From: Ascoidea asiatica JCM 7603
Taxonomy: Eukaryota > Fungi > Ascomycota
Direction: 5' to 3'
Assembly: GCA_001600695.1 (NCBI GenBank)
Contig: BCKQ01000016.1
Span: 117,151 to 181,150, forward strand
DNA length: 64,000 nucleotides
The notes under the pieces were generated by a model. The model was not told the DNA's origin. It did not search any database and saw nothing but the letters and a program-made list of their open reading frames with translations. Below are positions 10,452-57,420 of this stretch, one piece after another; position 1 is the stretch's first letter; each line of letters opens with the position of its first letter. A program made the translations under genes and the position numbers.

Positions 10452-12080
10452 CTATTTAGTCCATTCTAAATATTCAGGATTGAATTCATTTGGTTTTGTT
10501 TTTCGTTGTAAAATATTTTCAATTTTCCATCTTAAACCAATCTTATTATTATATTTAGAAGTGAATCTATTCAATACTTCTTTTTTCGATACAGCAAAAT
10601 CTCTACCAGAACCATCATTTCCAGTTATATAATCCCTGACTTCAGATTCAGTTGGCAAACCATAATTGGAAATATAAGAATTATATTTAATAAACTGATT
10701 ATTTTCAGGAGAGTGAAGATTGATCAAGTCTTTACTTATTAATGAATCTTTGATTGTAGCATCAATACTCGAATTTTTTTCTGGAGATAAAAATTTCAAA
10801 ATATCTGAAGCACTAATATCTGTTGGTTTTTTGAATAACCAGTTTGGATTATTTTTTTTTGTAATTAATTTGTTTGAAACCCCTTCGTTAAAATCATTAT
10901 TTTTTGAATCTAGCATTAGTAATTGAGCTGAAGTTAATTCCTGTTTGATTGAATCATAATTTGACTGATTTTTATTCTTTTTCAATAATTCATAAGCTAA
11001 CTTCAATGAAATTGAAGATTTTTTACTTAATTTTTCAACTATTTCGGTGATAAAGGATTTTAATGAGTCTGAATTTAATGATGACTTTAATTCTTTTTCT
11101 AAATTTATTAAAATTAAATCTATTGAATTTTTATCATTTAATTGAAAAATTCTTTCTATTAAATTGATCTGATCATTTGAATATTTCATATTATGATCAA
11201 TTGGGATTGGATCTGTAAACTCTTCAATTGTTTGATTTATAATTGAATAAAATTCTTTAACTTGATTTGAAATATTCGAAATATTTGAATTTGGATTGAT
11301 ATTATGCAAATAATCATTAGGATAGGATAAATCTGACAATCTTTTAGTTAAATCATTTAATCTAACTTCAGGTACATAATGGGTTGCATTACCAATTAGT
11401 AAATTATCAATACCTTTGATTTTATCACCAGTTAAAGCTAAATAAAGACCAAGATTATTTTCCATTCTAGATAAATAAAATGTAGTCCCAACATCAGGAA
11501 AGAAACCTATATCCATTTCTGGCATTGCAAAATTGGTTGATTCAGTTGCAATTCTGAAAGGATTATGAATAGATAAGCCAACACCACCACCCATTGTAAT
11601 ACCATTCATATAAGCAATTACTGGTTTTGAATAAATAGATAAATAATAATTCAAAGAATATTCAGTTTCAAAAAATTTACAGGATAAGTCTTTTTTATTA
11701 TTTAAGTTATTTCTAGCACATTCAGCAACATCACCACCTGAACAAAATGCTCTTGAAGATGAGGAGTTTATTATTATTAAGTTATTTAAATTTGATTTTG
11801 AATATTCAACTAATCTTGAAGATATTTTTGAACACATATCTGTGGTTAATGAATTTAATTTTTTAGGTCTATTCAATGTTATAATTCTTGCACCACCTTG
11901 ATGAGAAACTAAGATTTCTTCTTCAGTGATTGGTTGCGACATTGTTGAATAGAAATTCTTAATATTTGAGTTATAGGTATTAACAGATCTTAACTGTTTT
12001 AAGTAATTTGAAGAATTTAAAGATTTTATATATCTTGGAGATTTAAATGATCCTAAGGATCGATTCGTAGCTAAGAACAT
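10452..12080 (-). CDS. EHD3: 3-hydroxyisobutyryl-CoA hydrolase / mitoribosomal protein mS47
   Basis: ITLNRPKKLNSL, FCSGGDV, MGGGVGLS and FAMPEMDIGFFPDVG crotonase-fold motifs. The N-terminus is Arg/Ser-rich with no acidic residues (mitochondrial presequence-like). The C-terminal extension YGLPTESEVRDYITG is typical of fungal Ehd3. Confidence 0.93.
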   Translation of the reverse strand: MFLATNRSLGSFKSPRYIKSLNSSNYLKQLRSVNTYNSNIKNFYSTMSQPITEEEILVSHQGGARIITLNRPKKLNSLTTDMCSKISSRLVEYSKSNLNNLIIINSSSSRAFCSGGDVAECARNNLNNKKDLSCKFFETEYSLNYYLSIYSKPVIAYMNGITMGGGVGLSIHNPFRIATESTNFAMPEMDIGFFPDVGTTFYLSRMENNLGLYLALTGDKIKGIDNLLIGNATHYVPEVRLNDLTKRLSDLSYPNDYLHNINPNSNISNISNQVKEFYSIINQTIEEFTDPIPIDHNMKYSNDQINLIERIFQLNDKNSIDLILINLEKELKSSLNSDSLKSFITEIVEKLSKKSSISLKLAYELLKKNKNQSNYDSIKQELTSAQLLMLDSKNNDFNEGVSNKLITKKNNPNWLFKKPTDISASDILKFLSPEKNSSIDATIKDSLISKDLINLHSPENNQFIKYNSYISNYGLPTESEVRDYITGNDGSGRDFAVSKKEVLNRFTSKYNNKIGLRWKIENILQRKTKPNEFNPEYLEWTK

Positions 12081-21469: not shown

Positions 21470-21885
21470 AATAGTTACAGTCACACTAGTTACACTAAAT
21501 AGCGACACTGACACTAACAGTAATCTGGTCAATTGCAATTGCAGTGGTTCTATTTCAGTGTGTTTGATCGAGTGCGGTGCCACGTGACCGTAGCCTCTCC
21601 CTTGGTGGCGTTATGCGCTTTGTTCTCTTTGTTCTGTGCTTTGTTTGTTTTTCTGGTCCTTGTCTGCGTGTGGCGTGTGGCGAGTTTCTGTTTCGTGTGC
21701 TTCGTCCTCTGCTTCGTCCTCTGCTTCTTCTGCTGCTGACGCTTCACTCACACTTTCATTCTCCATTGCTATATATATCTCTCTTTATCCCCTTTCTCTT
21801 TCTCTTTTTCTCTCTTCTCATTTCCATTTTATTCATCATTCACTTCACTTCTCTTTTCTTGAATATTCATCGTTGTTTTCTCAAA

Positions 21886-23172
21886 ATGACAATGCCAAAT
21901 ACAACTTCAAATGAAAATACAAATCAAATTAATAATAATATTAATCAATTACCAACAAAAGAAGAATCTTCAAAAAAAATTGCAAAACAAATTTTAAATA
22001 ATTCAAGAATTGAAGATATTATTCAATATGAAAATATTTTAAAAAGAAGAGGTTTATCAATTAATAAAGCAATTAATTTATCCTCAAATTTAGATAATCC
22101 AATTTTAAATAATTCAATTTTAAATAATTCAATCTCAAATCAATTAAATTTAGAAAATAATAATCAAAATTTAATTAATGATAAAAATAATAATATAAAT
22201 ACAGAACCTAATTCCCAATCAAATTCTAATTCTAATCAAAAGGTTAAAGTTACTTTACCAATTCAATATAATTCAAATTTTTTAAACATTTTAATTAATA
22301 ATAATTTTATAAATTTAATTTTATTTTATATTTATCATTTTATTTTAATTTCTTTAATTTTTACATATTCAATATTTAGAATTTTTCAATTTTTTAAAAA
22401 TAAATTAAAATTATTATTCTTAAAAATTTCTTATAATAATTTAAATAATTCTTCAAAAATTATTAGAAATGATATTTTAAAATTAAATAAATTACCAAAA
22501 AAAATTTCAATTATACTTAATGAAAATAATAATATTAAATTAATTGATAATTCATCAGATTTTATAATTTGGAATTTATCTTCTGGTATAAAATTTATCT
22601 CAATTTATGATCAATTTTCAATTCTTAAAAAAAATTTAAATATTTTAAATTTAAAATTATCTTTAAATAAAAAATTATTATTAAATTTTAATATTAAAAA
22701 TTTACCAAATTATATTATTAAAATTCCTTCTTTAAATTATATTTATTCTTCTTCAAATCAATTCATTCAATTATCAATTGATGATAATCAAGAAGAACAA
22801 CAACAACAACAACAAAAACTTTATTTTAATGATTCATTACCTTTAATTGAAATTACTTTATTAAGTGAAATTGATGGTAGAAATACAATTGTAAATTTAA
22901 CAAAATCTTTGGCAAAATTAAATAATAAAAAAATTTTAAATTTAAATGATATTAATGTAAATTTAATTGATAATAAATTATCAAATTTAATTGGTATTGA
23001 ACCTGATTTATTAATTTTATTTACTCCATATTTAGATTTAAAAAATTATCCTCCATGGCATTTAAGATTATCTGAAATTTATTATGAACCTGATAATAAT
23101 GATTTTAATTATTCAATTTATTTAAGAGCTCTACAAAAATTTTCAACTGTTAAATTTAATATCGGTAAATAA
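21886..23172 (+). CDS. NUS1: Dehydrodolichyl diphosphate synthase subunit Nus1
   Basis: IIRNDILKLNKLPKKIS, SIYD, LLSEIDGRNTIVNLTK, EPDLLI, YPPWHLRLSEIY and C-terminal NIGK. The likely start is ATG 21886 (or 21892); the ORF-track GTG at 21577 runs through promoter sequence. Confidence 0.92.
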   Translation: MTMPNTTSNENTNQINNNINQLPTKEESSKKIAKQILNNSRIEDIIQYENILKRRGLSINKAINLSSNLDNPILNNSILNNSISNQLNLENNNQNLINDKNNNINTEPNSQSNSNSNQKVKVTLPIQYNSNFLNILINNNFINLILFYIYHFILISLIFTYSIFRIFQFFKNKLKLLFLKISYNNLNNSSKIIRNDILKLNKLPKKISIILNENNNIKLIDNSSDFIIWNLSSGIKFISIYDQFSILKKNLNILNLKLSLNKKLLLNFNIKNLPNYIIKIPSLNYIYSSSNQFIQLSIDDNQEEQQQQQQKLYFNDSLPLIEITLLSEIDGRNTIVNLTKSLAKLNNKKILNLNDINVNLIDNKLSNLIGIEPDLLILFTPYLDLKNYPPWHLRLSEIYYEPDNNDFNYSIYLRALQKFSTVKFNIGK

Positions 23173-23296: not shown

Positions 23297-24544
23297 TTAA
23301 ATATTTAAACCTTTTTGAATAGTGAAATCTTTAATTAATTCAGATGTTGTACCAACTTCTAAATCTTTACAAAATCCATTAATACTTGCAGAAATTAATA
23401 AATTATTAAATCTTGATGGTTCATTTGGTAATTTAAATATTGATTTCCAATCATTTTCTAAATCAATATTATTATTACTACTATTACCCTTTTTATCTAA
23501 TAAATTTTCTGCTTTAGATTTAATTTTCCATTGTTGAATTTTAATTAATTCTCTTGATAATTGTCTTTGATAATAATTAAAATTATTTAAATCATAATTA
23601 AATGAATCAATTGAATCAAATAATTTATCTATAATTGTTGGTAAATATTTACTATTTGATAAATTTAATGTATTAAAATTATCTTTAAAAATTTCATTAT
23701 TATTATTACTTTCATTGTTAAATTCATATTCAAATTCATTTCCATTTTTATTATCAATTTCATTATCATTATCAAAGTTATTATTATTATTATTATTGTT
23801 GGTATTACCATTATTAATACTCTTATTATTTAAATCATGTAACATTAATGAAATTAAATTTGAATTTTTAATTTTAACTTTTAATTCTTCAAAAATATTT
23901 AAATAATTTAATTCATTTTTTAATAATATTTCACTATTAAATTTATTTGTATTATTTAATGAATTTTTATAAACATTTAAAAAATTTAAACTTAATCTAA
24001 AAGCTCTAATTGATAAAATTCCATTATTATTCATTTTTGAAGAATCATGAATAATTAAAATTGAATTTGGATTAATATTTTGTAAAGATAATAAACTATC
24101 AATAATTTGATTATTAAAAAAATTTGTTGAAATTGAACATTGATACCATCCAATAAATTGAGATGGTACTCCAGTATCTTTTAATAAATCAAATAATTCA
24201 TTTTGAAATTTTTGATTTGATCTTAATTTAAATGAAGAACCTTCATTTGAATCACCATATGTTAAATATGGAAAAGCTTGAGAAACGGATAAAATTTTAT
24301 CATTATCTAAACCTAATAAAGGACCAGAAACTGGTGTTGGATAATGATCTGCTGCATGTTTAACAATCTTTAATGCTACACTACTTTCAATTTCAACAAC
24401 TTTTGTAGTTGCTGGTAAATATTCTTTTAATCTATAAAAATTTTAAAATTGTTAGTTATATTTGATGATAATTTAATAATACTAAAAGTATAAGTTTAAA
24501 AAAGTACCTAAAAAATATTTAACATACTGTTTATTGGATGACAT
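23297..24544 (-). CDS. Eukaryotic translation initiation factor 3 subunit H (MPN domain), spliced: complement(join(23297..24431,24528..24544))
   Basis: ATGTCATCCAATAAACA|GTATGT donor at 24527, branch AACTAAC at 24457-24451, TAG acceptor at 24434-24432. The product MSSNKQLKEYLPATTKVVEIESSVALKIVKH...GPLLGLD...GWYQ...LIIHD...LSIRAFRLS...YYQRQLSRE...EPSRFNNLL is eIF3h-like. Confidence 0.9.
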
Positions 24545-27113: not shown

Positions 27114-27661
27114 CTTATAATAGATAATTGATTCCATCAATTTATCTATCGATCTATTTTCATGTTTAATTCTATATTCAAATTAAATTTTTCATATTCA
27201 TTCAATTCATTTATATATGCTAAATAAACTATGAATTGACCTTATTTTTTTTTCATTTTTTTCTTTTACAGTCTCATTTTTCATTTCTATCTTCATTATT
27301 CAATATACAAGTATGATTGTATTTGGACTTTATCATTAGTTTTCTAAAATCAAAAAAAAAAACGTTTTTTTTTTCTTCAATACATATTTTATACAAGCAC
27401 TCATTAAAACTTTTCTTCTTGCCAAAATAAAATCTCAAACTTTCATTCATATAATAATAATCAAATTGTAGTCAAACCACATACTAATATGAAATCCAAT
27501 ATACTGTAATTGAATATAGAGATGCAATTATATGTATTCTCTAAGAATACAGTCTTGACATAGCAAAAATTTCAAATTTGAAATAATGTTAGTAAAAAAA
27601 ATAGATACATACTTACCATTATTCGGATATCAAAATGTAAAGATATCACAACAAAATTATT

Positions 27662-30587
27662 CTATTTGCTTTGTCCAATTTCTTTCTGTTTTTTAACTTT
27701 TTTCCTTTCAGAAACTTTATTCAATTGCGCCCAATCAAGAAATAAATTTGGTTTCATTTTTTCTTTTCTTAATTCGGCTATTGACTCAAGTAATTTTTCA
27801 CATTCATTATTCTCATTTTTGTACAATAAAGTTTTAAGTTTACTTTTGTACTCATTAATTTCCTCTTTATTTCCTTCAGGAACACATTTTACAATTTCTG
27901 TTATAGTTTCTCCAACTAAATTAAAAGTATAATTATAATTTCCAAAAAAAAAATAAAAAAAATATTAAAGAAATGATAAATAACAAATAATTTGAATTTA
28001 AAAAAAAAACCAAACCATTCATTATTTTAATCAAAAGTTAAATATGTTTAAGTAAGTGTAAGGGGTTTTGATTATTGTTAGAAAAGTTCAACTTTTTTAT
28101 TTAAAAAAATTTGATTAAACATACCATTTAAATTCATTTCTTTGAAATGTTGAAAATTGCAAGAGGAATCATTACAGTTACCTCCACTTGACTCATTAGG
28201 ACATAAAGGTTTATCTGGATCAATTTTATTATTCCATGTTTTAGAAGTTAATTTATCTTGAAATAATGGACTAAATCTATAAGATTTAAAAACTCTTAAA
28301 GATGATTCATATGGTTTGAACTTTTGATTTTCAATCTAAATTCAATTTGTTGATGTTATATAAATTTTTTGACAAAATTTTTGTTGAAATTGTTTGGTTA
28401 GTAATTTTGAAAATCTTATTAAAGTACTAAAATCTTGATTTCATATTTTTAAGGGAAATGATGAATAAATAATTTAATATTCTTTTTATCTAATTTACTA
28501 TCAGAGATAATTGAAAAGAAAAAAAAGAGGAAGAATAAAAAAAATTAAACAAGAGGAACAGAAATACAAACCTTTGGAATATCTATCTCGAAATTTTCAG
28601 AATTATAGTTACTACTATAGTTATCATTTGTACATAACAATTCATCTTCAAACCCTTTTAAATCTATTGTACCCTTTGATATTGTATCATTTTTATTTGA
28701 AATCATTTCATTTCTAATAATATTTTCATCTTCTGAGGTTTCCTGGATTTCATGGATTTCCTCATCTTTTGGAAGTATTATTATATCTAAATCATTGTCA
28801 TTTGATTTAGATATACTTTGATTATTCATAGTTTCATCCTTTATCTTACTCATATCCTGAGAAACTTTTGGTTTAAACTCATCCATTTCTTCATCTATTG
28901 AAAGAATATATTCTTCATCACTAATAGGATGAGCTATTGAATGATTTTCTATTACTTCAGATACTTCAGATTTTGAATTTATATTAAAAGTTGAATCAAT
29001 CATTTGTGTATGTATATTTTTAATTGTACCATTTAAAACAACATTTTTATTAAAATTATGATGATTATCTGTATTAACTAAGTTAATTTTACTAGTTTCA
29101 ATTGGAAAAGTTGGTGAAATTGAAGAGTTTCTATTTATTTTTAGTATGGATAAATTTAAATCAAGATTATTAGATTTTATTTCATTTTGTTTTAGTTTTT
29201 GAATTTTTTTTCCTATTTCTTTTTGTTTAAATTCAAGTAATTTTGATTTTAATAAATTTTTTTTTAAAATTGGTAAATTAACTGATTTTTTCTTATTAAT
29301 TTGATCAAGTTTTAAATTTAAATTATTTAAAATTTTTTTATTATATAATAAGCTTTCATTTAAATTTTTAATTTGTAATTCAATATTATTAATTAAATTA
29401 ATTTGAGATTTAATATTTGAATTAATTTCATTATATTCATTTTCAATATTATTTATTTTCTCGGTTATTTCAATTGATGAATTTTGATTTAAATTTTTAA
29501 TTGGTAATTCCGGTTTTAATTCAATTGGAGAATTTGGCTTTTTATTTTTTTGTAAATTTAAAATTGATTGTCTTAATCTTGCAATTTCTAATTCTTTTTT
29601 TTTCAATAAATCAAAGCTGTTATTATTATTATTATTATTAGTAGTATTATTAGTAGTAGTATCACTTTTTTCATCTTCAATATTTATATTCTTTTCTTCA
29701 TATTCATCTTCCTCTTCATTATCAGAGAAATAGATAATTAAATTAGATAGCCAATCATCATTTCCTAATTGTCTAAATTTTCTTTTTAAATTTATAGAAT
29801 TTACATTTTGAGTTTTTATATTGGATTGGTTATTAATTGAAGAATTAACTAATTGATCAGAAGATGATAAGTATGAAGGTTGTTGTAAAATTTCATATAT
29901 ATTTTGATTAATAGATGAAGATGTTTTTGTATTTGGGTTCAAGTTTAAATTTAAATTAGAGTTCGAGTTGAAATTTGAAGTAAAATTTGAGTTTGGATAA
30001 ACCAAATTATTAAAGTCTTTATTATATTCAGTTTCTTGTCTCATCTCTTGGGTATCCTGGATATCTTGGATATCCTGAGTTTCCTGAATATCCTGTATGT
30101 TTTGCATGTTTTGTATATCCGGATAATACTGATCATCTTGATCATCCTGATCATTGTTAAATTCAAAATTTTCTGTATTTTCTGTATTTTCCATATTTTC
30201 TTGATCATTTTCATCAATAGAAGATTCATAGTCAAAGGGCAAATTTAATTTCTTAAAACAATAAATTAAAGAATTTTTATCTTTTAAATTACAGTATTGT
30301 AAAATATGATTGAAATCATAACCTAAATTATATAAATCTAAAACTGCTTCATAAATTGGGTTTCTCAATTGTCTTTTTTTTTTGAATAAAATAAGATATG
30401 GATTATTTATTTCTGATTGTGATGATATATTCAAAGAATTATTAATATTAACTGTATCAGTATCATTGGAATAATTAATATTTGAATTATTGATATTTGC
30501 AGTGTTTATAATATTTCTTATGTCGGCGGTTAAGGAATTATGATCAGAATCGTTAGCAAAGTTTAAGTTTCTTGAAAGAGTATCCAT
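27662..30587 (-). CDS. Red1/ZFC3H1-like zf-C3H1 protein, spliced: complement(join(27662..27915,28125..28335,28572..30587))
   Basis: Intron 1: GTTTGT(28571)...TACTAAC(28403-28397)...TAG(28336), phase 0. Exon 2 encodes YESSLRVFKSYRFSP...KIDPDKPLCPNESSGGNCNDSSCNFQHF. Intron 2: GTATGT(28124)...TAG(27916), phase 1. Exon 3 stays in frame to TAG at 27664-27662. Confidence 0.8.
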
Positions 30588-37296: not shown

Positions 37297-39204
37297 ATGT
37301 TCTTACAAAATTTTTATTTCCCATTTCTTATAATAACCTCTCAAGCATTAAAAATTCCATGGATTTCAAGTAATGATAATATAAAACCTAAAAATGATTT
37401 AAATAACTTACCAAATTCAAATTATCAAAAAGATATTGATTTGAATTATAATAATGAAATTATAGATCAATTATTACAAAGACAAGAACTTTTACTTAAT
37501 TCAAATAATGACTTCAATTATAATGATAATGATAATAATAATGATAATGAAAATATTAATAAATTTAAATCAATTGAGAATTTGGAAATTTTTAAAATTG
37601 AAAATTTAAAAAATAATTTCAATTTAGAATGTTCAATAAAATTCTTAAATCCAATTTTAAATAAATGTTCTTATAATTTTGAAATTATAAATAATAATAA
37701 TAATTTAAAAAATTTTATTTCTTTAAATTTTGCAATTTGTCAATTAATTTCAAATGGTATTCAAATTCCAAATTCTTGTAATAATTTATTAATAAATTCA
37801 AATCAAAAAAATTATTTCTCAAATAATAATAATATTGAAAATAACAATAATAATAATAATAATAATAATAATGAAAATTTTGAATTATTGATTAATGATT
37901 ATTCTTTAGATAACTTCAATAACAAAAACCAAAACCAAAACCAAAACCAAAATGGAAATGGAAATGGAAATGGAAATGAAAATAATGATATGTCATTATG
38001 TATGAAATCAATGTTTAAATCTCCTCAATATTGGACAACTTATGATTCATGTTATAAAGTTGTGAATTACGGTTGTATTCAATCTTCAATTCCATATGAA
38101 AAAAATGAAATTTTAAAATTACATTTAAATGTAACTAATTTTTATAAAAAATTTAATAATGAATTAAATTTAAATTTTAATAATTATTTAAAATTTAATA
38201 AAAAATATAATGAATTAAATAAAAAATTTTCAAAAGAAATTGAAATTTCAATTTTAAATAAACTTAATTTCTTAAATTATTCAATTAATAATTCAATTAA
38301 TAATTCACTCTCTGATTCAATAAATTTATCAAATAATTTAACTAAAAAATTAACTTCAAATTTAAATTTAAATTTAAATAATAATTTAAATAATTTTAAA
38401 TTTGAAATTAATGAATTTTTATTTAATGATTTTTTACCAAATTTTTATTTAAATTTAAATGAAATTTCAAATGAATTTAAAAATGAAGATTATTTAAATC
38501 AAATTAAAAATTTTAAAGAAAATTATATAAATGATTTAAAAGAAATTTCAAATTATTCAAAAAATGAAATTAATGAAATTAATTTAAATTCTATAAAAGT
38601 TTCAAAAAATTTTAATAAATTTATAAATAATTTTAATAATTCAATTGAAAATATTAATAATTTAACAATTAATCAAAATTTAATTTTAAATAATTTATTT
38701 AATAAAAGTTTAAATGAATTTGAAATTAAAAAATTAAATTTTGAAAATTCAACAAATTTTTTCTTTAATAAAATTTCATTAATCTTAAATGAATTCAAAT
38801 CAATTGAAGATAATAATGATAATAATGATAATAATGGTAATAATGGTAATAATGGTAATAAATTTTCAATATTGATAATAATTTTTAAATTTTTTATAAG
38901 AAATTTAATAAATTTAAGTTTAATTTTAGAGAAATTTATAAATGGAATTAAATTAATTTTTAATAATATATTAATATTTATAATTTCAATTTTAATTATA
39001 TATTATATAATTTATTTTAATTTAATTAAACCAATTTTAAATAAAATTGAAAATAAAATATGTGATAAGAGAAAATGGAAAAATTTGATAAATAAAAATG
39101 GAATTAGAATAAGTAAAATTATTATAATTATAATTTGTTTAAATATTGGAATTATTGGAGGTAAAGAATTTTCTAAAAAAATGAATGATTTATTATTTAT
39201 ATAA
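37297..39204 (+). CDS. KAR5: Nuclear fusion (karyogamy) protein Kar5/Tht1
   Basis: Signal peptide; Cys-rich domain (C...C...FAICQL...IPNSC...CMKSM...QYWTTYDSCY...C); coiled coil; C-terminal transmembrane segments. Confidence 0.85.
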   Translation: MFLQNFYFPFLIITSQALKIPWISSNDNIKPKNDLNNLPNSNYQKDIDLNYNNEIIDQLLQRQELLLNSNNDFNYNDNDNNNDNENINKFKSIENLEIFKIENLKNNFNLECSIKFLNPILNKCSYNFEIINNNNNLKNFISLNFAICQLISNGIQIPNSCNNLLINSNQKNYFSNNNNIENNNNNNNNNNNENFELLINDYSLDNFNNKNQNQNQNQNGNGNGNGNENNDMSLCMKSMFKSPQYWTTYDSCYKVVNYGCIQSSIPYEKNEILKLHLNVTNFYKKFNNELNLNFNNYLKFNKKYNELNKKFSKEIEISILNKLNFLNYSINNSINNSLSDSINLSNNLTKKLTSNLNLNLNNNLNNFKFEINEFLFNDFLPNFYLNLNEISNEFKNEDYLNQIKNFKENYINDLKEISNYSKNEINEINLNSIKVSKNFNKFINNFNNSIENINNLTINQNLILNNLFNKSLNEFEIKKLNFENSTNFFFNKISLILNEFKSIEDNNDNNDNNGNNGNNGNKFSILIIIFKFFIRNLINLSLILEKFINGIKLIFNNILIFIISILIIYYIIYFNLIKPILNKIENKICDKRKWKNLINKNGIRISKIIIIIICLNIGIIGGKEFSKKMNDLLFI

Positions 39205-47387: not shown

Positions 47388-49403
47388 ATGACTGAAGTGC
47401 AAAATCATCCAAAGAGGTCTTTGGTGCATGGAAATAGCATAGCTTCTAAAAAAAGAAAAACAATTCACTTTGGATTTGATCCAAGATATCGTTTTAGTTA
47501 TATGCATAAATCTCCAATAGTATCTATAATATCTATTAAAAACTCATTGGGAGATATTATTATTATTACAAGTTCAATTGATGGAGCAATCAAATTCTGG
47601 AAAAAGAATTCAAATTCTGGTGGTTCACTTGAATTTATTAAAGAATTTAGATCAAATGATAAAAGTCCATGTTTAGTTGAGAATATTTCACATTCTGCAA
47701 ATAAGTATTTTTTATCGTTTACTAAAGATTCTAAGAAAATTAAAATATTTGATGTTGATTTATTGGATGTAATTAATATTTTTGAATTGGATTGCCTACC
47801 GGGGGTAGTTTGTTGGTCTAGTTATATGAATTCATTAAATTTGATAGTAACAGATAGTCTTAGCAGTGATATATATATAATAGATCCATTTTCTGATAAT
47901 AAAAATGGTTTTGAATCAGCTAAAGAAAATAAAGATGAAATAAATGATATTGATATAGATATTGATGAAAATCTCGATGATTTGGAGAAAAATCCTGAGG
48001 ATGATGATAAAGATGATGATGAAGATGATGGTAGTGATTTTAAATCTCTCAATAAGGAAAAAAAATATAATCATTATTTATATAAAACCAATTCCATTCA
48101 TAAAAATCCAATAATATGTTTGAGTTATAATAAAAAATATGAATTTGTAATATCTTGTGATTCAAAAGGGGATATAGAATATTGGATACCAAATCAATCT
48201 TTTGATAAACCAACAAATACTACTTTTAAACTTAAATCAGAAACAAATTTATTTGAATTTAAAAAATCAAATTCAATACCAGCTGTTATAAAATTTTCAC
48301 ATGATTTCAAGAAATTTGTAATTATTTCATTTCCAGATAATATAATTAGAATTTTTAAAACCAGTAGTGGAAAATTAATTAATAAATATGATGAATCTGT
48401 TAAAGCTTCAATAAAAAGTTATGAAATGAATAAAAGTAAAATGGAAAAACAAAAAAAACAAAAAAACCTGAAAAGTTTTGGACCAAAAGATGAAATTATT
48501 TTCAATAATAAAATAAGTTTTGAAAAAGAACTAAGTCATAAAGAAAATATTAATATAAATATTGGAATATTATTTGATAAATCTGATTCATTTATAATAT
48601 ATCCATCAATGAATGGAATTAAATTTTTAAACTTAACAACCAATAAATTAAAAACTCTTGGAAAAGATGATGTAAATGAATATTCAGAAACTGAGATTAA
48701 TACTCTTCGATTTTTTAATTTATGTTTAAATGAAGATGAAGAATTTCCAAATAATTCATTATTATTAGCAAGTTGTTATACAAATAACAGATTTTATATT
48801 TTTAATAATATTGAAAAAGAAAAAAGGGAAAACTTTGATGATTATAAAAATGAAAGAGATATTCAAAATGAAGAAGATGAACTTAAATTAATTGATAAAG
48901 GAAAATCATTGAATTATAAACTTAAATATAGAGGGTCTAATGTAACATTACATACTACAAATGGTGATATTCAATTAAAATTATATCCAGAATATGCTCC
49001 ACTTGCAGTTGAAAATTTTCTTACACATTGTTCAGAAAATTATTATGATAATATTATATTTCATAGAGTTATTCCAAAATTTATGATTCAAACTGGAGAT
49101 CCAAAAGGAGATGGAACTGGTGGTGAAAGTATTTGGAAGAAATATTTTCCAGATGAATTTAATGAAAATACAAATTTTAATAAACCATTTATGTTAGCAA
49201 TGGCTAATTCTGGAGAAAATACAAATGCATCTCAATTTTTTATTACTACTGGAAAAGCAGAATGGCTAAATAATAAACATACAATATTTGGAGAAGTTAT
49301 TAATGGATTTGATGTAATAAAAGCTATAGAAATGACAAAAGTTGATGAACATGATATGCCAGAGGATCCTCCAGTAATAATAGCGACAACAGTTGAAACA
49401 TAA
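47388..49403 (+). CDS. WD40-repeat cyclophilin (PPWD1/Cyp15-like spliceosomal PPIase)
   Basis: RYRFSYMHK, SIDGAIKFWKK, IEYW and KSETNLFEF WD motifs; cyclophilin motifs FHRVIPKFMIQTGDP, NASQFFIT and WLNNKHTIFG. First ATG at 47388. Confidence 0.93.
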   Translation: MTEVQNHPKRSLVHGNSIASKKRKTIHFGFDPRYRFSYMHKSPIVSIISIKNSLGDIIIITSSIDGAIKFWKKNSNSGGSLEFIKEFRSNDKSPCLVENISHSANKYFLSFTKDSKKIKIFDVDLLDVINIFELDCLPGVVCWSSYMNSLNLIVTDSLSSDIYIIDPFSDNKNGFESAKENKDEINDIDIDIDENLDDLEKNPEDDDKDDDEDDGSDFKSLNKEKKYNHYLYKTNSIHKNPIICLSYNKKYEFVISCDSKGDIEYWIPNQSFDKPTNTTFKLKSETNLFEFKKSNSIPAVIKFSHDFKKFVIISFPDNIIRIFKTSSGKLINKYDESVKASIKSYEMNKSKMEKQKKQKNLKSFGPKDEIIFNNKISFEKELSHKENININIGILFDKSDSFIIYPSMNGIKFLNLTTNKLKTLGKDDVNEYSETEINTLRFFNLCLNEDEEFPNNSLLLASCYTNNRFYIFNNIEKEKRENFDDYKNERDIQNEEDELKLIDKGKSLNYKLKYRGSNVTLHTTNGDIQLKLYPEYAPLAVENFLTHCSENYYDNIIFHRVIPKFMIQTGDPKGDGTGGESIWKKYFPDEFNENTNFNKPFMLAMANSGENTNASQFFITTGKAEWLNNKHTIFGEVINGFDVIKAIEMTKVDEHDMPEDPPVIIATTVET

Positions 49404-51265: not shown

Positions 51266-52696
51266 ATGGTGGATGATAATATAGATTATTTTGATGAAAA
51301 CAGATATAGAAACAATGAAGAAGAAGTAGTTTTTGAAACTGTTAACAGTGTTAAGATTATAACATTGAATAGACCAAAGAAATTAAATTCGTTAAATTTT
51401 AATATTATTGAGAAGTTATTAACAAATTTAATTAAATTTGAAAATGATAATAAAGTTAAATTTATAATTATTAAATCATGTAATCCAAAGTTTTTTTGTT
51501 CAGGTGGTGATATAGTTGAAGTTATCAGGAATACAAATTCCAAAGATGAAAAAATTAAATTTAAATCATTTAAATATTTTCAAAATGAATATACATTAAA
51601 TTATTTATTAACAATTTATTCAAAACCAATAATAAATTTTATTAATGGAATTATTATGGGTGGTGGAATTGGTATTACTTCCCATAATTCTTTTAGGATA
51701 TTTAGTGATTTTACAAAATTTCAAATGCCAGAAATTAAAATTGGTTTTTTCACAGATATTGGAATTTTTTTTAATTTTAAAAATAATAAAAGTTTAATTT
51801 TTGAGAAAAAAAATTTTTCAAATTTTTTATTATTATTTAATGAACCAATTATTGGTGCTTTAGATAATTTAATTTTAGGTAATGCAACACATTTTATTAA
51901 ATCTGAAAATTTTAATAATGTAATTAATCAATTAATTAATATATATAATGAAAATGTCGACAATGATGATGAGGATGATGATGAGGATTGCATTTATAAT
52001 AAAATTAATAAAATTTTAAATAAATTTAATGAAAAAATTCCAAAAAATTATAAATGTTCATTTAATTTTAAAGAAATTGAAAATTTATTCAATTTTAAAA
52101 ATTATAAGAATTTCATTGAATTTTTAAATAATTTAAATGAAAATTATTTAAATAAATTAAATTTAATAGATAATTCCAAATTTTCAATAATTTTAATGTT
52201 TTATTTAATAAAAAACTTTGATGAATTAAAAAATTCAATTAAAAACTTCAATTCAAGTTATGAAATTCTTAAAAGAGATTTAATTTTATCACAAATTTTT
52301 TTAAAAAATCTAAAATTAAATGATTTTAATGAAATTATTAATAAAAAATTTATATTTAAATTAAAAGATTTTAATAATTATAATTTAATTTATAAAAATT
52401 TTAATGAATTTAATTTAAAAGATTTTGAAATATATTTAAATTATAACTTAAATGATTTGGATATTCCTTTTAGAGAATTGAATTATAATAATCAAATTGT
52501 TCAAAAAAATATTTATAATTATAAATATAACTTTAATTTACCTTCGGATAAAGATATTGAAGCAGTTATGAAAAGTTATAATTTATATTCAAATACATGT
52601 GAATCAAGAGGTGATTTGATTTCTGAAATTGCCAGTCATTTACCAGAAAACACAAACAACTCCTGGAAGATTAATGATTATTTATCCAGGAAATGA
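51266..52696 (+). CDS. Second, divergent 3-hydroxyisobutyryl-CoA hydrolase (Ehd3-like paralogue)
   Basis: ITLNRPKKLNSL, FCSGGDI, MGGGIG, FQMPEIKIGFFTDIG and LGNATHF are shared with the gene at 10452-12080. The N-terminus is acidic. First ATG at 51266. Confidence 0.88.
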   Translation: MVDDNIDYFDENRYRNNEEEVVFETVNSVKIITLNRPKKLNSLNFNIIEKLLTNLIKFENDNKVKFIIIKSCNPKFFCSGGDIVEVIRNTNSKDEKIKFKSFKYFQNEYTLNYLLTIYSKPIINFINGIIMGGGIGITSHNSFRIFSDFTKFQMPEIKIGFFTDIGIFFNFKNNKSLIFEKKNFSNFLLLFNEPIIGALDNLILGNATHFIKSENFNNVINQLINIYNENVDNDDEDDDEDCIYNKINKILNKFNEKIPKNYKCSFNFKEIENLFNFKNYKNFIEFLNNLNENYLNKLNLIDNSKFSIILMFYLIKNFDELKNSIKNFNSSYEILKRDLILSQIFLKNLKLNDFNEIINKKFIFKLKDFNNYNLIYKNFNEFNLKDFEIYLNYNLNDLDIPFRELNYNNQIVQKNIYNYKYNFNLPSDKDIEAVMKSYNLYSNTCESRGDLISEIASHLPENTNNSWKINDYLSRK

Positions 52697-54711: not shown

Positions 54712-57420
54712 TCACACACTTATCCAACGAGGATTTGCCCACCCTTTAACGGTAAACTGAACATTGTTTTTCATCATACCACATGCTTTGAAATCATTTA
54801 TGTCTTCATTATTTGAATCTAAACTTATATTATTATATAATGCATTAGTTTTCTCATTAATAATTTCATTTTTCTTATTTATACTTGAATCAAAATTAAT
54901 TAAATTTTTTTTGAAATCTTCATCATATTTAATCCATGGAATCATCCCATTACTTGTTCTTCTATTATTAAAAAACCTATCTTCTTTTTCTTCTTCCACT
55001 TCAATTGTTTGTTGATTTGATTCTAATTTTGAATCCAACTTTTCATTAATAATTTCATTCTTTACATTTCCAATAAATATATATTTATTTTTATATTCAT
55101 AATTAGGGATATCATTTCTAGGTGGTAATTTCATTAACTTCCATAATTTATTATATGCAGTTAAAGCTAAACTATGTTTTTCATTCAAAGAATTATTATT
55201 ATCCAAGTCATTATTAATATTTTTATTCTCAATAATTTGAAAAAAATCTTCACTCAAAAAATTTGGTATTAAATCCTTACATATAGCAGTATATTCATTT
55301 GCATAAATTCTTAAAAATGCTGGATTTCTTCTATAAGATCTAGATTTAGTTAACATATATAAAACTTCAGTTGTCTTAGGAGAAGATGAAGATGAAGATA
55401 AGGATGATGATGATGATGGTGATGATGTTAAATTAGTACTGTTATCATTTGAATTGTTATCTTTTTCTTTAGATACACCTCCAAATGGAATTTTATAAAC
55501 TCCAAAAGTTTTTAATTGAACATCTTTTTTTCTAATATTGTTATTATTATTAATTTTATTAATACTATTGTTAGATCTTGAAAGAGTTGATAAATTTAGA
55601 TGAGAAGGATTAATTGGGGGATAAGATAAATTAAAAACAGCTCTATCATCAGTCATTCTAGGAGTAAAAGTAAAAGAAGAAGCAGCAGCTAGAATTATAT
55701 CATTTTTGATTAAAATTGAAGAAGTTGCAACTTTTTTTAGATTTTTAAAAGATTTTGTTAAATTAGATACAAAACTTTTTCTTTTTTTCAAGGATTTGGA
55801 ATTTTTCAAAGATCTTTTGAAAGTTTTATTAAAATTGAAATTAAAATCTATGTCATCATTTTCATTGCTATTAATATTATCATTATTGTTGTTATTGATT
55901 GAACTAGTTGATAATAAAAGAGAATTTTTGAAACTTGAAGTTGAAAAAGATGGTTTTATTATAATATTATCATTGAGAGAAGTTGTTGAAGATGAAGTTA
56001 AATTTAAGTTTGTAGGAAATGAATTTTTAGTTAGATTATTATTGTGATAATTAACTTGATTTATTATTTGATTATTATTGGTATTGGAATTATTATTATT
56101 AATGTTAATGTTGAATAAAGTAGAAGCTTTGAAACTTAATTGAGAGTCATTATCATTATCATTATCATCGTCATTGTTATTGTCATTGTCATTAATATTT
56201 GTATTGGTAATAGTATTGTGGTTATCGGTATCAATATCCGTGAGATCATTATTGTGAAAATGAGAATTATTTGTAATTTTATTTTTAAGATTATTAATAT
56301 ATTTTTCTTTAACAGTAATATTATTATTGTTATTATCGGATAAAGGATGAGAATCAATTGATTTTACATGAATTAAATTTGAATTTGAAGTTGAACTTAA
56401 ATTTAATGAGGAATATGGAGAATATAATGGATCGGAGGAATATCTTAAAGAGTTAGTTAAAGAAGAATAATTATTCAAATTATTATTTAAGTTATTATTA
56501 TTATTATTATTATTATAATTTAAATGATTTTTGATAGGAGAATTTGAAGAATAAGAATAAGAATAAGAATTTGAGTTTAAGTTTGAGTGTAAATTTGTAT
56601 AAGAATATGAATATGAAGAAGATGAAGATGAAGATTCTAAATTTGATTTTGAAATTGAATTAGAAAGTAAATTTGAATTATTTAAATTTGAATATGATAA
56701 ACCAGATCTTTTTGCTGATAATATTGAAGCTAAAGAAGGAGTTGCGAAAGAGGTAGCAATAGTATTTATACTATTAGTACTTAAATTATTATTATTATTA
56801 TTGTTGTTGTTGTTGTTATTTGAATCAAAATTTGAAGAAATATCAGATAATATGTAATTATTATTATTATTATTAGTAGTGTTATTTATATTAATATTAG
56901 GTATTGGATCATAAATGAAAGAATTTTTATTATTATAGGAAGTTAAAGAGGTTGAAATTGAATTTAAAGAAGAATTTGAAGATATTAAAGAGTTTGAAAG
57001 TGATTCATTATTATCTACATCAACATCAACATCGACATCATTAGAAATTTCATTATTAGTTTCGTTATTATTATTAAGTTGTTTTGATTGTTTGATAGTT
57101 GATTGAGAAGATAAATTAGATAATTGTTTAATTAACTTATTTGAATATTTATTAAGATAAGTTATATTATTATTGTTATTTTTATTATTATTATTATTGG
57201 TGTTGGTATTTTTATTTATTGAATTAGATTGAATTGTATTTGGAATTGGAATATATTTTGAATTACAATTTGAAGTTGAAAGAGATGTTGAAATTGTTGG
57301 ATTTGAATAATGTATAAAATTCATATTATTAAATTCAAGTGAAGAGTTTTGATTATTTATTGAGATTTTATTAAGAGATGAATCTGGGTTCAAATATATA
57401 TTATAATCTAACATAATCAT
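54712..57420 (-). CDS. Asn/Ser-rich protein of unknown function with conserved-looking C-terminal motifs
   Basis: 902-aa ORF, mostly low complexity. Islands FIYDP, FTPRMTDD, RSYRRNPAFLRIYANE, KLPPRND, IPW and QFTVKGWANPRW look like family motifs, but no name could be assigned. Confidence 0.75.
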   Translation of the reverse strand: MIMLDYNIYLNPDSSLNKISINNQNSSLEFNNMNFIHYSNPTISTSLSTSNCNSKYIPIPNTIQSNSINKNTNTNNNNNKNNNNNITYLNKYSNKLIKQLSNLSSQSTIKQSKQLNNNNETNNEISNDVDVDVDVDNNESLSNSLISSNSSLNSISTSLTSYNNKNSFIYDPIPNININNTTNNNNNNYILSDISSNFDSNNNNNNNNNNNNLSTNSINTIATSFATPSLASILSAKRSGLSYSNLNNSNLLSNSISKSNLESSSSSSSYSYSYTNLHSNLNSNSYSYSYSSNSPIKNHLNYNNNNNNNNLNNNLNNYSSLTNSLRYSSDPLYSPYSSLNLSSTSNSNLIHVKSIDSHPLSDNNNNNITVKEKYINNLKNKITNNSHFHNNDLTDIDTDNHNTITNTNINDNDNNNDDDNDNDNDSQLSFKASTLFNININNNNSNTNNNQIINQVNYHNNNLTKNSFPTNLNLTSSSTTSLNDNIIIKPSFSTSSFKNSLLLSTSSINNNNNDNINSNENDDIDFNFNFNKTFKRSLKNSKSLKKRKSFVSNLTKSFKNLKKVATSSILIKNDIILAAASSFTFTPRMTDDRAVFNLSYPPINPSHLNLSTLSRSNNSINKINNNNNIRKKDVQLKTFGVYKIPFGGVSKEKDNNSNDNSTNLTSSPSSSSSLSSSSSSPKTTEVLYMLTKSRSYRRNPAFLRIYANEYTAICKDLIPNFLSEDFFQIIENKNINNDLDNNNSLNEKHSLALTAYNKLWKLMKLPPRNDIPNYEYKNKYIFIGNVKNEIINEKLDSKLESNQQTIEVEEEKEDRFFNNRRTSNGMIPWIKYDEDFKKNLINFDSSINKKNEIINEKTNALYNNISLDSNNEDINDFKACGMMKNNVQFTVKGWANPRWISV

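Follow-up and report, generated by a model that had tools for sequence, protein, structure and literature searches.

A gene on the minus strand of contig BCKQ01000016.1 of Ascoidea asiatica JCM 7603 almost certainly specifies an orthologue of Red1/ZFC3H1, as predicted from the sequence together with its splice junctions. It occupies positions 27662–30587 of the 64,000-nucleotide (nt) stretch that was analysed (contig positions 117,151 to 181,150; hereafter the window). Its frame is open across three exons, and the product matches the zf-C3H1 family, keeps the greater part of the residues with which Red1 grips the arch of Mtr4, has an intron at an ancestral position, carries likely counterparts of the modules of Schizosaccharomyces pombe Red1 in the same order and lacks the Ars2-binding motif. 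The protein would probably serve as a multi-partner nuclear RNA-surveillance scaffold and Mtr4 adaptor without a direct arm to CBC (the cap-binding complex) and Ars2.

The locus contains a 680-amino-acid (aa) open reading frame (ORF; 30587–28545, minus strand) with two short open stretches downstream. An initial annotation of this DNA took the ORF to be exon 1 only, and the coordinates it gave are exact: exon 1 (28572–30587, aa 1–672), exon 2 (28125–28335, 211 nt, aa 673–743) and exon 3 (27662–27915, aa 743–826, stop codon at 27662–27664) join in frame into a coding sequence of 2481 nt with one stop, specifying 826 aa. Exon 1 is Asn-rich and largely of low complexity, and contains a helix-turn-helix (HTH)-like block, a motif resembling the Pla1-binding site and coiled coils. 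Exon 2 encodes the predicted Mtr4/Mtl1 arch-binding segment and the C3H1 zinc finger, and exon 3, whose 84 codons have an exon-like composition, a predicted three-helix bundle and a basic tail roughly 22 aa long. Since there is no CTG codon in the gene, its translation does not depend on the meaning of CTG.

Intron 1 (28336–28571, 236 nt, phase 0) has a GTTTGT donor, a TACTAAC branch motif at 28403 and a TAG acceptor that is the first AG past this motif. Just eight perfect copies of TACTAAC occur in the window, both strands counted, and the next AG follows them at 8–61 nt. Among 14 GT candidates between 28400 and 29500 with at most two mismatches to the consensus, the donor at 28571 is the sole phase 0 site with G at +5, and the T content is 0.31 before it and 0.62 after it. 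Because this donor is a variant in a linker of poor conservation, its exact position is less sure than those of the other three splice sites. Intron 2 (27916–28124, 209 nt, phase 1) interrupts the codon at His+8, counted from the last zinc ligand, and possesses a GTATGT donor, a TAG acceptor and distant variant branch-like sites, TTCTAAC at 28083 (168 nt from the acceptor) and ATTTAAC at 28043 (128 nt). This is an unusually long distance from branch site to acceptor, and it contains no AG, where about three would be expected. A hairpin between branch site and acceptor was considered and is not claimed: its energy (-19.1 vs -13.3 +/- 2.9 for mononucleotide shuffles) is modest, about two standard deviations below the mean, in an AT-rich stretch.

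The finger C-x8-C-x4-C-x3-H announced for the added exon lies at aa 717–735, with all four ligands kept (C717, C726, C731, H735) and a Phe (Phe736) right after it. A hidden Markov model search against Pfam bore out the zf-C3H1 assignment: exon 2 matches PF10650 with 43.1 bits (cut-off 20.9; E-value=3.4e-11), and also the crystallised Red1 peptide (PDB accession numbers 6YFV and 6YGU; E-value=6e-11). Together with the shared intron at His+8, these matches sustain the proposed Red1/ZFC3H1 orthology. The residues named in PMC8187409 as the interface of Chaetomium thermophilum Red1 with the Mtr4 arch were placed on the 6YFV alignment, the numbering being checked via the four zinc ligands. Nine of the 16 are identical (Y1017, S1019, L1021, F1024, F1033, S1043, T1045, I1050, F1075), five are conservatively replaced (F1027, V1037, Y1046, M1056, I1078) and two are changed. 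The likeness to C. thermophilum Red1 extends to 14 of 16 interface residues identical or similar and 4/4 zinc ligands, in a protein which likewise has a segment predicted to bind the Mtr4 stalk and KOW domain followed by a C3H1 finger. Mutation of I1050 (S. pombe I612) abolished arch binding (PMC8187409), and its counterpart in the alignment to 6YFV is Ile710. The Phe following the Red1 finger is described as mimicking an arch-interacting motif, with a three-helix bundle behind (bioRxiv 10.64898/2026.08.18.745603). The predicted protein would very likely bind the Mtr4 arch.

At E<=0.001, exon 2 found 626 cluster representatives, the best 150 of which form the homologue listing used here. A classification by the helical tail was possible for 148 of 151 homologues: among the 80 without a tail, 75 have Gly at His+8, and among the 68 with one, 49 have Asp. 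Gly at this position corresponds to read-through of a G|GT donor, and such records are therefore of the unspliced type. A GT donor at the identical codon and phase to intron 2 is present in 32 of 37 homologue metagenome loci, which yield the family tail only once spliced (55–113 bits), although this count overstates independence, since some loci are near-duplicates and all were found via fragments that stop at this intron, and it demonstrates that the position is shared, not how frequent it is. Four of the other five loci read through without an intron and one lacks the motif. The same script, applied to the window, chose the intron 2 acceptor proposed in the initial annotation. Judged from these sequences, the position of intron 2 is ancestral. 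Intron 1 may be ancestral too, since in 26 of the 37 loci a comparable phase 0 acceptor pattern stands 30–54 nt ahead of a conserved Tyr (24 nt here), this being a match of pattern only in a variable linker. Loci L001–L003 and L008–L012 have two such phase 0 patterns, about 45 and 123–147 nt before the Tyr, which suggests a micro-exon upstream of the finger exon.

Full-length filamentous homologues are 1062–1576 aa long (median 1247). A species name was attached to 13 of the 22 homologues looked up, all of them Pezizomycotina, chytrids or Mortierellomycota, and the Red1 family is pan-fungal; no named Saccharomycotina homologue was obtained among those listed and looked up. Four chytrid and Mortierellomycota proteins (P0079, P0107, P0129, P0143) continue for 519–789 aa past the finger, unlike the Dikarya-type homologues. 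The Logan proteins P0091/P0152 (488 aa) end at the same intron, so that the tail exon lies outside the record, and probably come from another yeast; the ESM Atlas result for P0091 was below the recognition mark. Like the window protein they are compact, with an HTH block (in P0091/P0152 at the extreme N-terminus), a Trp-containing strand motif, a short coil, a shortened wedge and no strict Ars2-binding motif, and they show 42% identity to it over the finger region. A tree of 32 rows and 133 columns grouped the window protein with P0091 (95/82), beside one Dothideomycete row; it is dominated by long branches, and was not used to argue for transfer or an order of events. Word-seeded searches for homologues returned 2 of 55 candidates with exon 2, none of 7993 with exon 1, and with alignment A1 only two of its own members among 7993. 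A metagenome scan with exon 2 alone gave 173 pattern matches, none of which was confirmed, and eight window proteins had no exact match in the protein collection. Public databases probably contain Red1 orthologues of other non-model yeasts that nobody has remarked on, and P0091 has the look of one.

In a profile of 57 full-length homologues the C-terminal domain scored 103 bits, with an alignment crossing the exon 2–3 junction, while exon 3 alone came second of 1103 six-frame segments (E-value=1.9) with the homologue block profile. A single-sequence model of exon 3 has helices at residues 4–9, 16–32 and 35–51, with a mean predicted local distance difference test score (pLDDT) of 64. Foldseek gave no match at E<=0.001 for either predicted model of this protein.

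Exon 1 has no Pfam match, and against PDB sequences it gave chance-level matches only. The full-length profile of the 57 homologues nevertheless aligns collinearly with the joined 826-aa protein, and with the 7QUU family profile it upholds the earlier remark that two exon 1 motifs, at aa 283 and aa 328, resemble Red1 of filamentous fungi. Four blocks can be distinguished. A three-helix block at aa 76–117 (30237–30362) is likely to be the orthologue of the Iss10-binding HTH, residues 192–236, of S. pombe Red1. The family profile that includes it matches 7QUU_B, the S. pombe HTH in its complex with Iss10 (E-value=1.1e-5), and its model has helices at residues 18–28, 33–40 and 45–54 (pLDDT 84–91). 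This model weakly matched HTH domains (Z 4.1–4.8, root-mean-square deviation 2.0–3.0, 44–50 residues aligned), 7QUU not being among the 25 chains listed for it in the structure search, and the block alone gave only chance-level matches to PDB sequences. Its identity to P0091 is 39% (E-value=1e-5). By eye, from the 7QUU chain and PMC9402713, the seven hydrophobic Iss10 contacts are kept hydrophobic, A201 and L205 being identical and A198, V208, V210, F215 and I220 replaced by hydrophobic residues, the last after a one-residue insertion.

The second block, a hydrophobic strand plus acidic patch at aa 274–292 (29712–29768) that takes in the aa 283 motif, is likely to correspond to the beta-0 strand V312–I314 and the patch D317–D320 of S. 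pombe Red1. There the Pla1/Pap1-binding site comprises W298, F305, the strand 312–314 and the acidic patch 317–320, W298 and F305 being essential (PMC9922296). The motif is present in 42 of the 57 full-length homologues and in P0091; the block ranked first of 1103 six-frame segments, yet with an E-value of 0.47, and the stretch had no match among PDB sequences. The third, a short conserved coiled-coil helix at aa 327–348 (29544–29609), was also first of the 1103 segments (E-value=0.058, homologue block profile) and recurs in P0091. The fourth is a long predicted coiled coil at aa 372–472 (29172–29474), situated where Red1 has its dimerisation coil and collinear in the full-length profile; it was unranked by its own block profile, its coil character being read by eye. 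A homodimer prediction for the coil scored 0.04 with controls that were not folded, and bears on nothing.

Several observations weigh against this reading, besides the limited independence of the 37 loci. In the Mtr4-binding segment, the U-shaped wedge is four residues shorter than in C. thermophilum Red1, and interface residues P1020 and L1061 are both replaced by Ser. The polar Iss10 contacts N194, Q195, E218 and E221 are not kept; a profile of the filamentous HTH left the block of the window protein outside its top five segments (E-value=0.017 pairwise), and a two-sequence, yeast-only HTH profile misses 7QUU at E<=10. At the putative Pla1 site, W298 and F305 have no clear equivalents, a Leu occupying the F305 position, and the shuffle rate of 23/20000 for the motif is not a clean test, because the pattern was composed after the sequences had been viewed. 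Intron 2 has no consensus branch point close to its acceptor, and the branch of the window protein is long. Taken singly the exon 1 blocks are weak (E-values of 0.06–0.5 for two among 1103 segments, the HTH and the long coil being unranked); the case for them is made by the order of the modules, their survival in the distant, compact P0091 and the family profile.

The Ars2-binding motif, [DE][DE]GE[ILV] (described in PMC8187409 and PMC9402713), occurs in 53 of the 57 full-length filamentous homologues. It is absent, in strict or relaxed form, from the 826-aa protein and from the three frames over 1.7 kb upstream of the gene, where no perfect branch point exists on the minus strand before the next gene; the strict motif is also absent from P0091. 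As this loss is the sole tested departure from the canonical scaffold, the protein is classed with the Red1/ZFC3H1 orthologues rather than with the canonical MTREC/PAXT scaffolds. Disruption of the Red1–Ars2 contact in S. pombe caused no measurable change in the levels of meiotic mRNA or promoter upstream transcripts (PROMPTs), as reported in PMC9402713, so that a Red1 without Ars2 could stay functional. The pathway had initially been called reduced; this holds for the lost Ars2 motif and does not hold for length, the protein having 826 aa against the 712 aa of S. pombe Red1.

The protein might be a stripped Mtr4 adaptor whose MTREC partners have been lost, and which competes with adaptors of the Nop53/Air2 type, tunes the helicase, or links Mtr4 to a Nrd1-Nab3-type or spliceosomal route. 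Such an adaptor would accord with strong conservation limited to exon 2, with weakly scoring exon 1 blocks, with the loss of the Ars2 motif and a Pla1 aromatic pair that is not evident, and with the joint loss of Red1, Red5, Rmn1 and Ars2 in Saccharomyces cerevisiae (PMC4455066). It is rather unlikely, however, in view of the HTH, the strand with its acidic patch and the short coil, which are kept in order in both the window protein and the distant P0091 while the rest has diverged. The HTH of S. pombe Red1 is unfolded without Iss10 (PMC9402713), and its retention here therefore suggests a remaining partner.

At the other extreme, the complete MTREC/PAXT could be kept, cap arm included, with Ars2 reached via a 5' exon that escaped notice, a motif that has degenerated, or a different subunit, for instance Red5. 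None of the other modules is out of place, and human ZFC3H1 is thought to contact ARS2 indirectly via ZC3H18 (PMC8187409). The lack of the motif in the 826 aa, in the 1.7 kb upstream and, in its strict form, in P0091, together with the lack of an upstream perfect branch point, makes a complete assembly improbable.

The transcript admits a further alternative, namely a main product other than the 826-aa form. Intron 1 could be retained (680 aa, no finger), exon 3 could be skipped to the branch point at 27594 (750 or 768 aa, no bundle), or the gene could be a decaying relic; the variant donor of intron 1, the long branch and the acceptor of intron 2, whose nearest 120 nt contain no consensus branch point whereas a perfect one is found 530 nt from the intron 2 donor, would all fit. 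These outcomes are very improbable, since the frame stays open and in phase through all three exons, exon 3 is exon-like, can be aligned to the family tail and is modelled as helical, the donor of intron 2 is at the ancestral position and the 3' part of this intron is free of AG where about three are expected. The perfect branch point belongs to an intron-like element at 27541–27616 (minus strand), with overlapping donors GTAAGT at 27616 and GTATGT at 27612, TACTAAC at 27594 and an acceptor AAG at 27554 or TAG at 27541. It begins 46 nt past the Red1 stop codon, and 22 nt separate donor and branch motif. The element is possibly a short intron of the 3' untranslated region or an alternative acceptor for the intron 2 donor, use of which would skip exon 3 and give the product of 750 or 768 aa. 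A loose pattern of this kind follows one of 20 other window ORFs, and among 26 distinct homologue 3' flanks it was seen in five, at varying positions, and is hence not conserved.

The least probable explanation, that the host is not a member of the Saccharomycotina or that it obtained the gene from a filamentous fungus, can draw on the want of a named Saccharomycotina homologue (13 of 22 named, all Pezizomycotina, chytrids or Mortierellomycota) and on the Dothideomycete row beside the window protein and P0091, but that tree has long branches and 133 columns, Rlp7 from a neighbouring gene matches 322-aa Rlp7 chains, presumably of S. cerevisiae, at E-value=1e-44, some 19 orders of magnitude beyond other L7-like chains, Rpn13 matches chains that we take to be from yeast ahead of human ones, introns are few and of the GTATGT/TACTAAC type, and the codon and base make-up of the gene is that of the window. 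From the neighbouring genes and the splice signals, the host lineage can with little doubt be placed in the Saccharomycotina outside the Saccharomycetaceae. CTG is rare among the window codons (20/11992); CTC, TCG and GCG are scarce as well, and the rarity of CTG therefore does not place the host in a CUG clade.

Compared with the characterised scaffolds, the Red1-like protein has its predicted modules in the order of S. pombe Red1, the MTREC/NURS scaffold: HTH, then Pla1 site and coiled coil, then helicase-binding segment, C-x8-C-x4-C-x3-H finger plus Phe, and three-helix bundle (PMC8187409, PMC9402713, PMC9922296, bioRxiv 10.64898/2026.08.18.745603). It differs in the missing [DE][DE]GE[ILV], in the aromatic pair and polar Iss10 contacts mentioned above, and in having Asn-rich linkers and a basic C-terminal tail. 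With human ZFC3H1, the PAXT scaffold, to which it is likened by description, it has the zf-C3H1 family in common. An ARS2 motif, a coiled-coil dimer and a predicted three-helix bundle are common to ZFC3H1 and Red1 (bioRxiv 10.64898/2026.08.18.745603, PMC9402713); unlike ZFC3H1, the window protein has no ARS2 motif, and it also lacks the long C-terminal extension of the chytrid and Mortierellomycota matches.

By analogy with S. pombe and C. thermophilum, the segment ahead of the finger would wedge between the Mtr4 stalk and KOW domain, the three-helix bundle would cap the finger, the coiled coil would dimerise, the HTH would bind an Iss10-like protein, and the strand with its acidic patch would contact the RRM of Pap1. 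The scaffold would probably gather polyadenylated RNA via Pap1, the poly(A) polymerase, and a partner of the Iss10 type, grip the Mtr4 arch as a competitor of other adaptors, and hand unwanted polyadenylated RNAs to the nuclear exosome. The helicase bound by C. thermophilum Red1 is Mtr4 itself, with an affinity of 115 nM (PMC8187409), so that no Mtl1 paralogue would be needed. In the absence of the Ars2 motif, capped transcripts would not be recruited by direct CBC–Ars2 contact, and the choice of substrate would then fall to the poly(A) and HTH arms. A Pfam scan of the 20 other long window ORFs revealed none of the MTREC partner subunits (Iss10-Mmi1, Red5-Pab2-Rmn1, CBC-Ars2, Pla1). A bolder proposal, which we regard as possible though doubtful, is a working, cap-independent MTREC in a budding-yeast lineage, with Mtr4, poly(A)-polymerase and HTH arms and no Ars2 arm, as an intermediate in the replacement by Nrd1-Nab3-Sen1/TRAMP. 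It would have an unrecognised Iss10-like partner and a splice switch in its own transcript, the weak, distant branch point of intron 2 and the strong one past the stop being able to subject the Red1 mRNA to the very pathway it serves or to give an isoform without the bundle.

Other genes of the window were noted in passing. That for eIF3h (23297–24543, minus strand) is represented among the listed ORFs by its 3' part of 245 aa, the N-terminal part coming from a short first exon joined over an intron (GTATGT at 24527); to our knowledge eIF3h is absent from S. cerevisiae. A WD40-plus-cyclophilin protein at 47388–49403 (plus strand), of the PPWD1/Cyp15 type by domain make-up, belongs to a spliceosome-associated class of which we know no member in S. 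cerevisiae; its gene is a further ancestral gene of RNA processing that has been kept. At most 40 kb separate two distinct genes of the ECH_2 family, 3-hydroxyisobutyryl-CoA hydrolase-like (10452–12080, minus strand; 51266–52696, plus strand). A 519-aa ORF at 21613–23172 gave a weak prenyltransferase match, its CTG-rich first 45 codons suggesting a wrong start. The ORFs at 37297–39204 (plus strand, 635 aa) and 54712–57420 (minus strand, 902 aa) have no Pfam family at E<=0.05.

The Red1 proteins of S. pombe and C. thermophilum have been studied in depth, and the family has members across Pezizomycotina, chytrids and Mortierellomycota. No paper on a Saccharomycotina Red1 was found in the open-access literature, although the supplementary alignments of PMC8187409 may show a yeast sequence, and the ortholog-table supplements of PMC6425859 and PMC4479816 contain no Red1 or PF10650 term. 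The initial annotation had S. cerevisiae lacking Red1 and relying on Nrd1-Nab3/TRAMP. This is stated in PMC4455066, according to which Red1, Red5, Rmn1 and Ars2 have no S. cerevisiae homologues, MTREC is missing from budding yeast and Nrd1-TRAMP is proposed as its replacement. What is new here is an extension of the family's range with one changed module, the absent Ars2 motif, and the second compact yeast-like homologue, P0091, is already public; no new mechanism is involved. Since the finger is encoded by a 211-nt exon behind an ancestral intron and is missed by ORF-only annotation, the range of the family in yeasts may be under-counted. If true, a Saccharomycotina Red1 with the helicase clamp and without the cap link would mean that the loss of MTREC postdates the origin of the budding yeasts and would suggest an order of disassembly in which the Ars2 arm went first. 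It would also offer a system in which the MTREC and Nrd1-TRAMP routes may coexist and could be compared by knockout.

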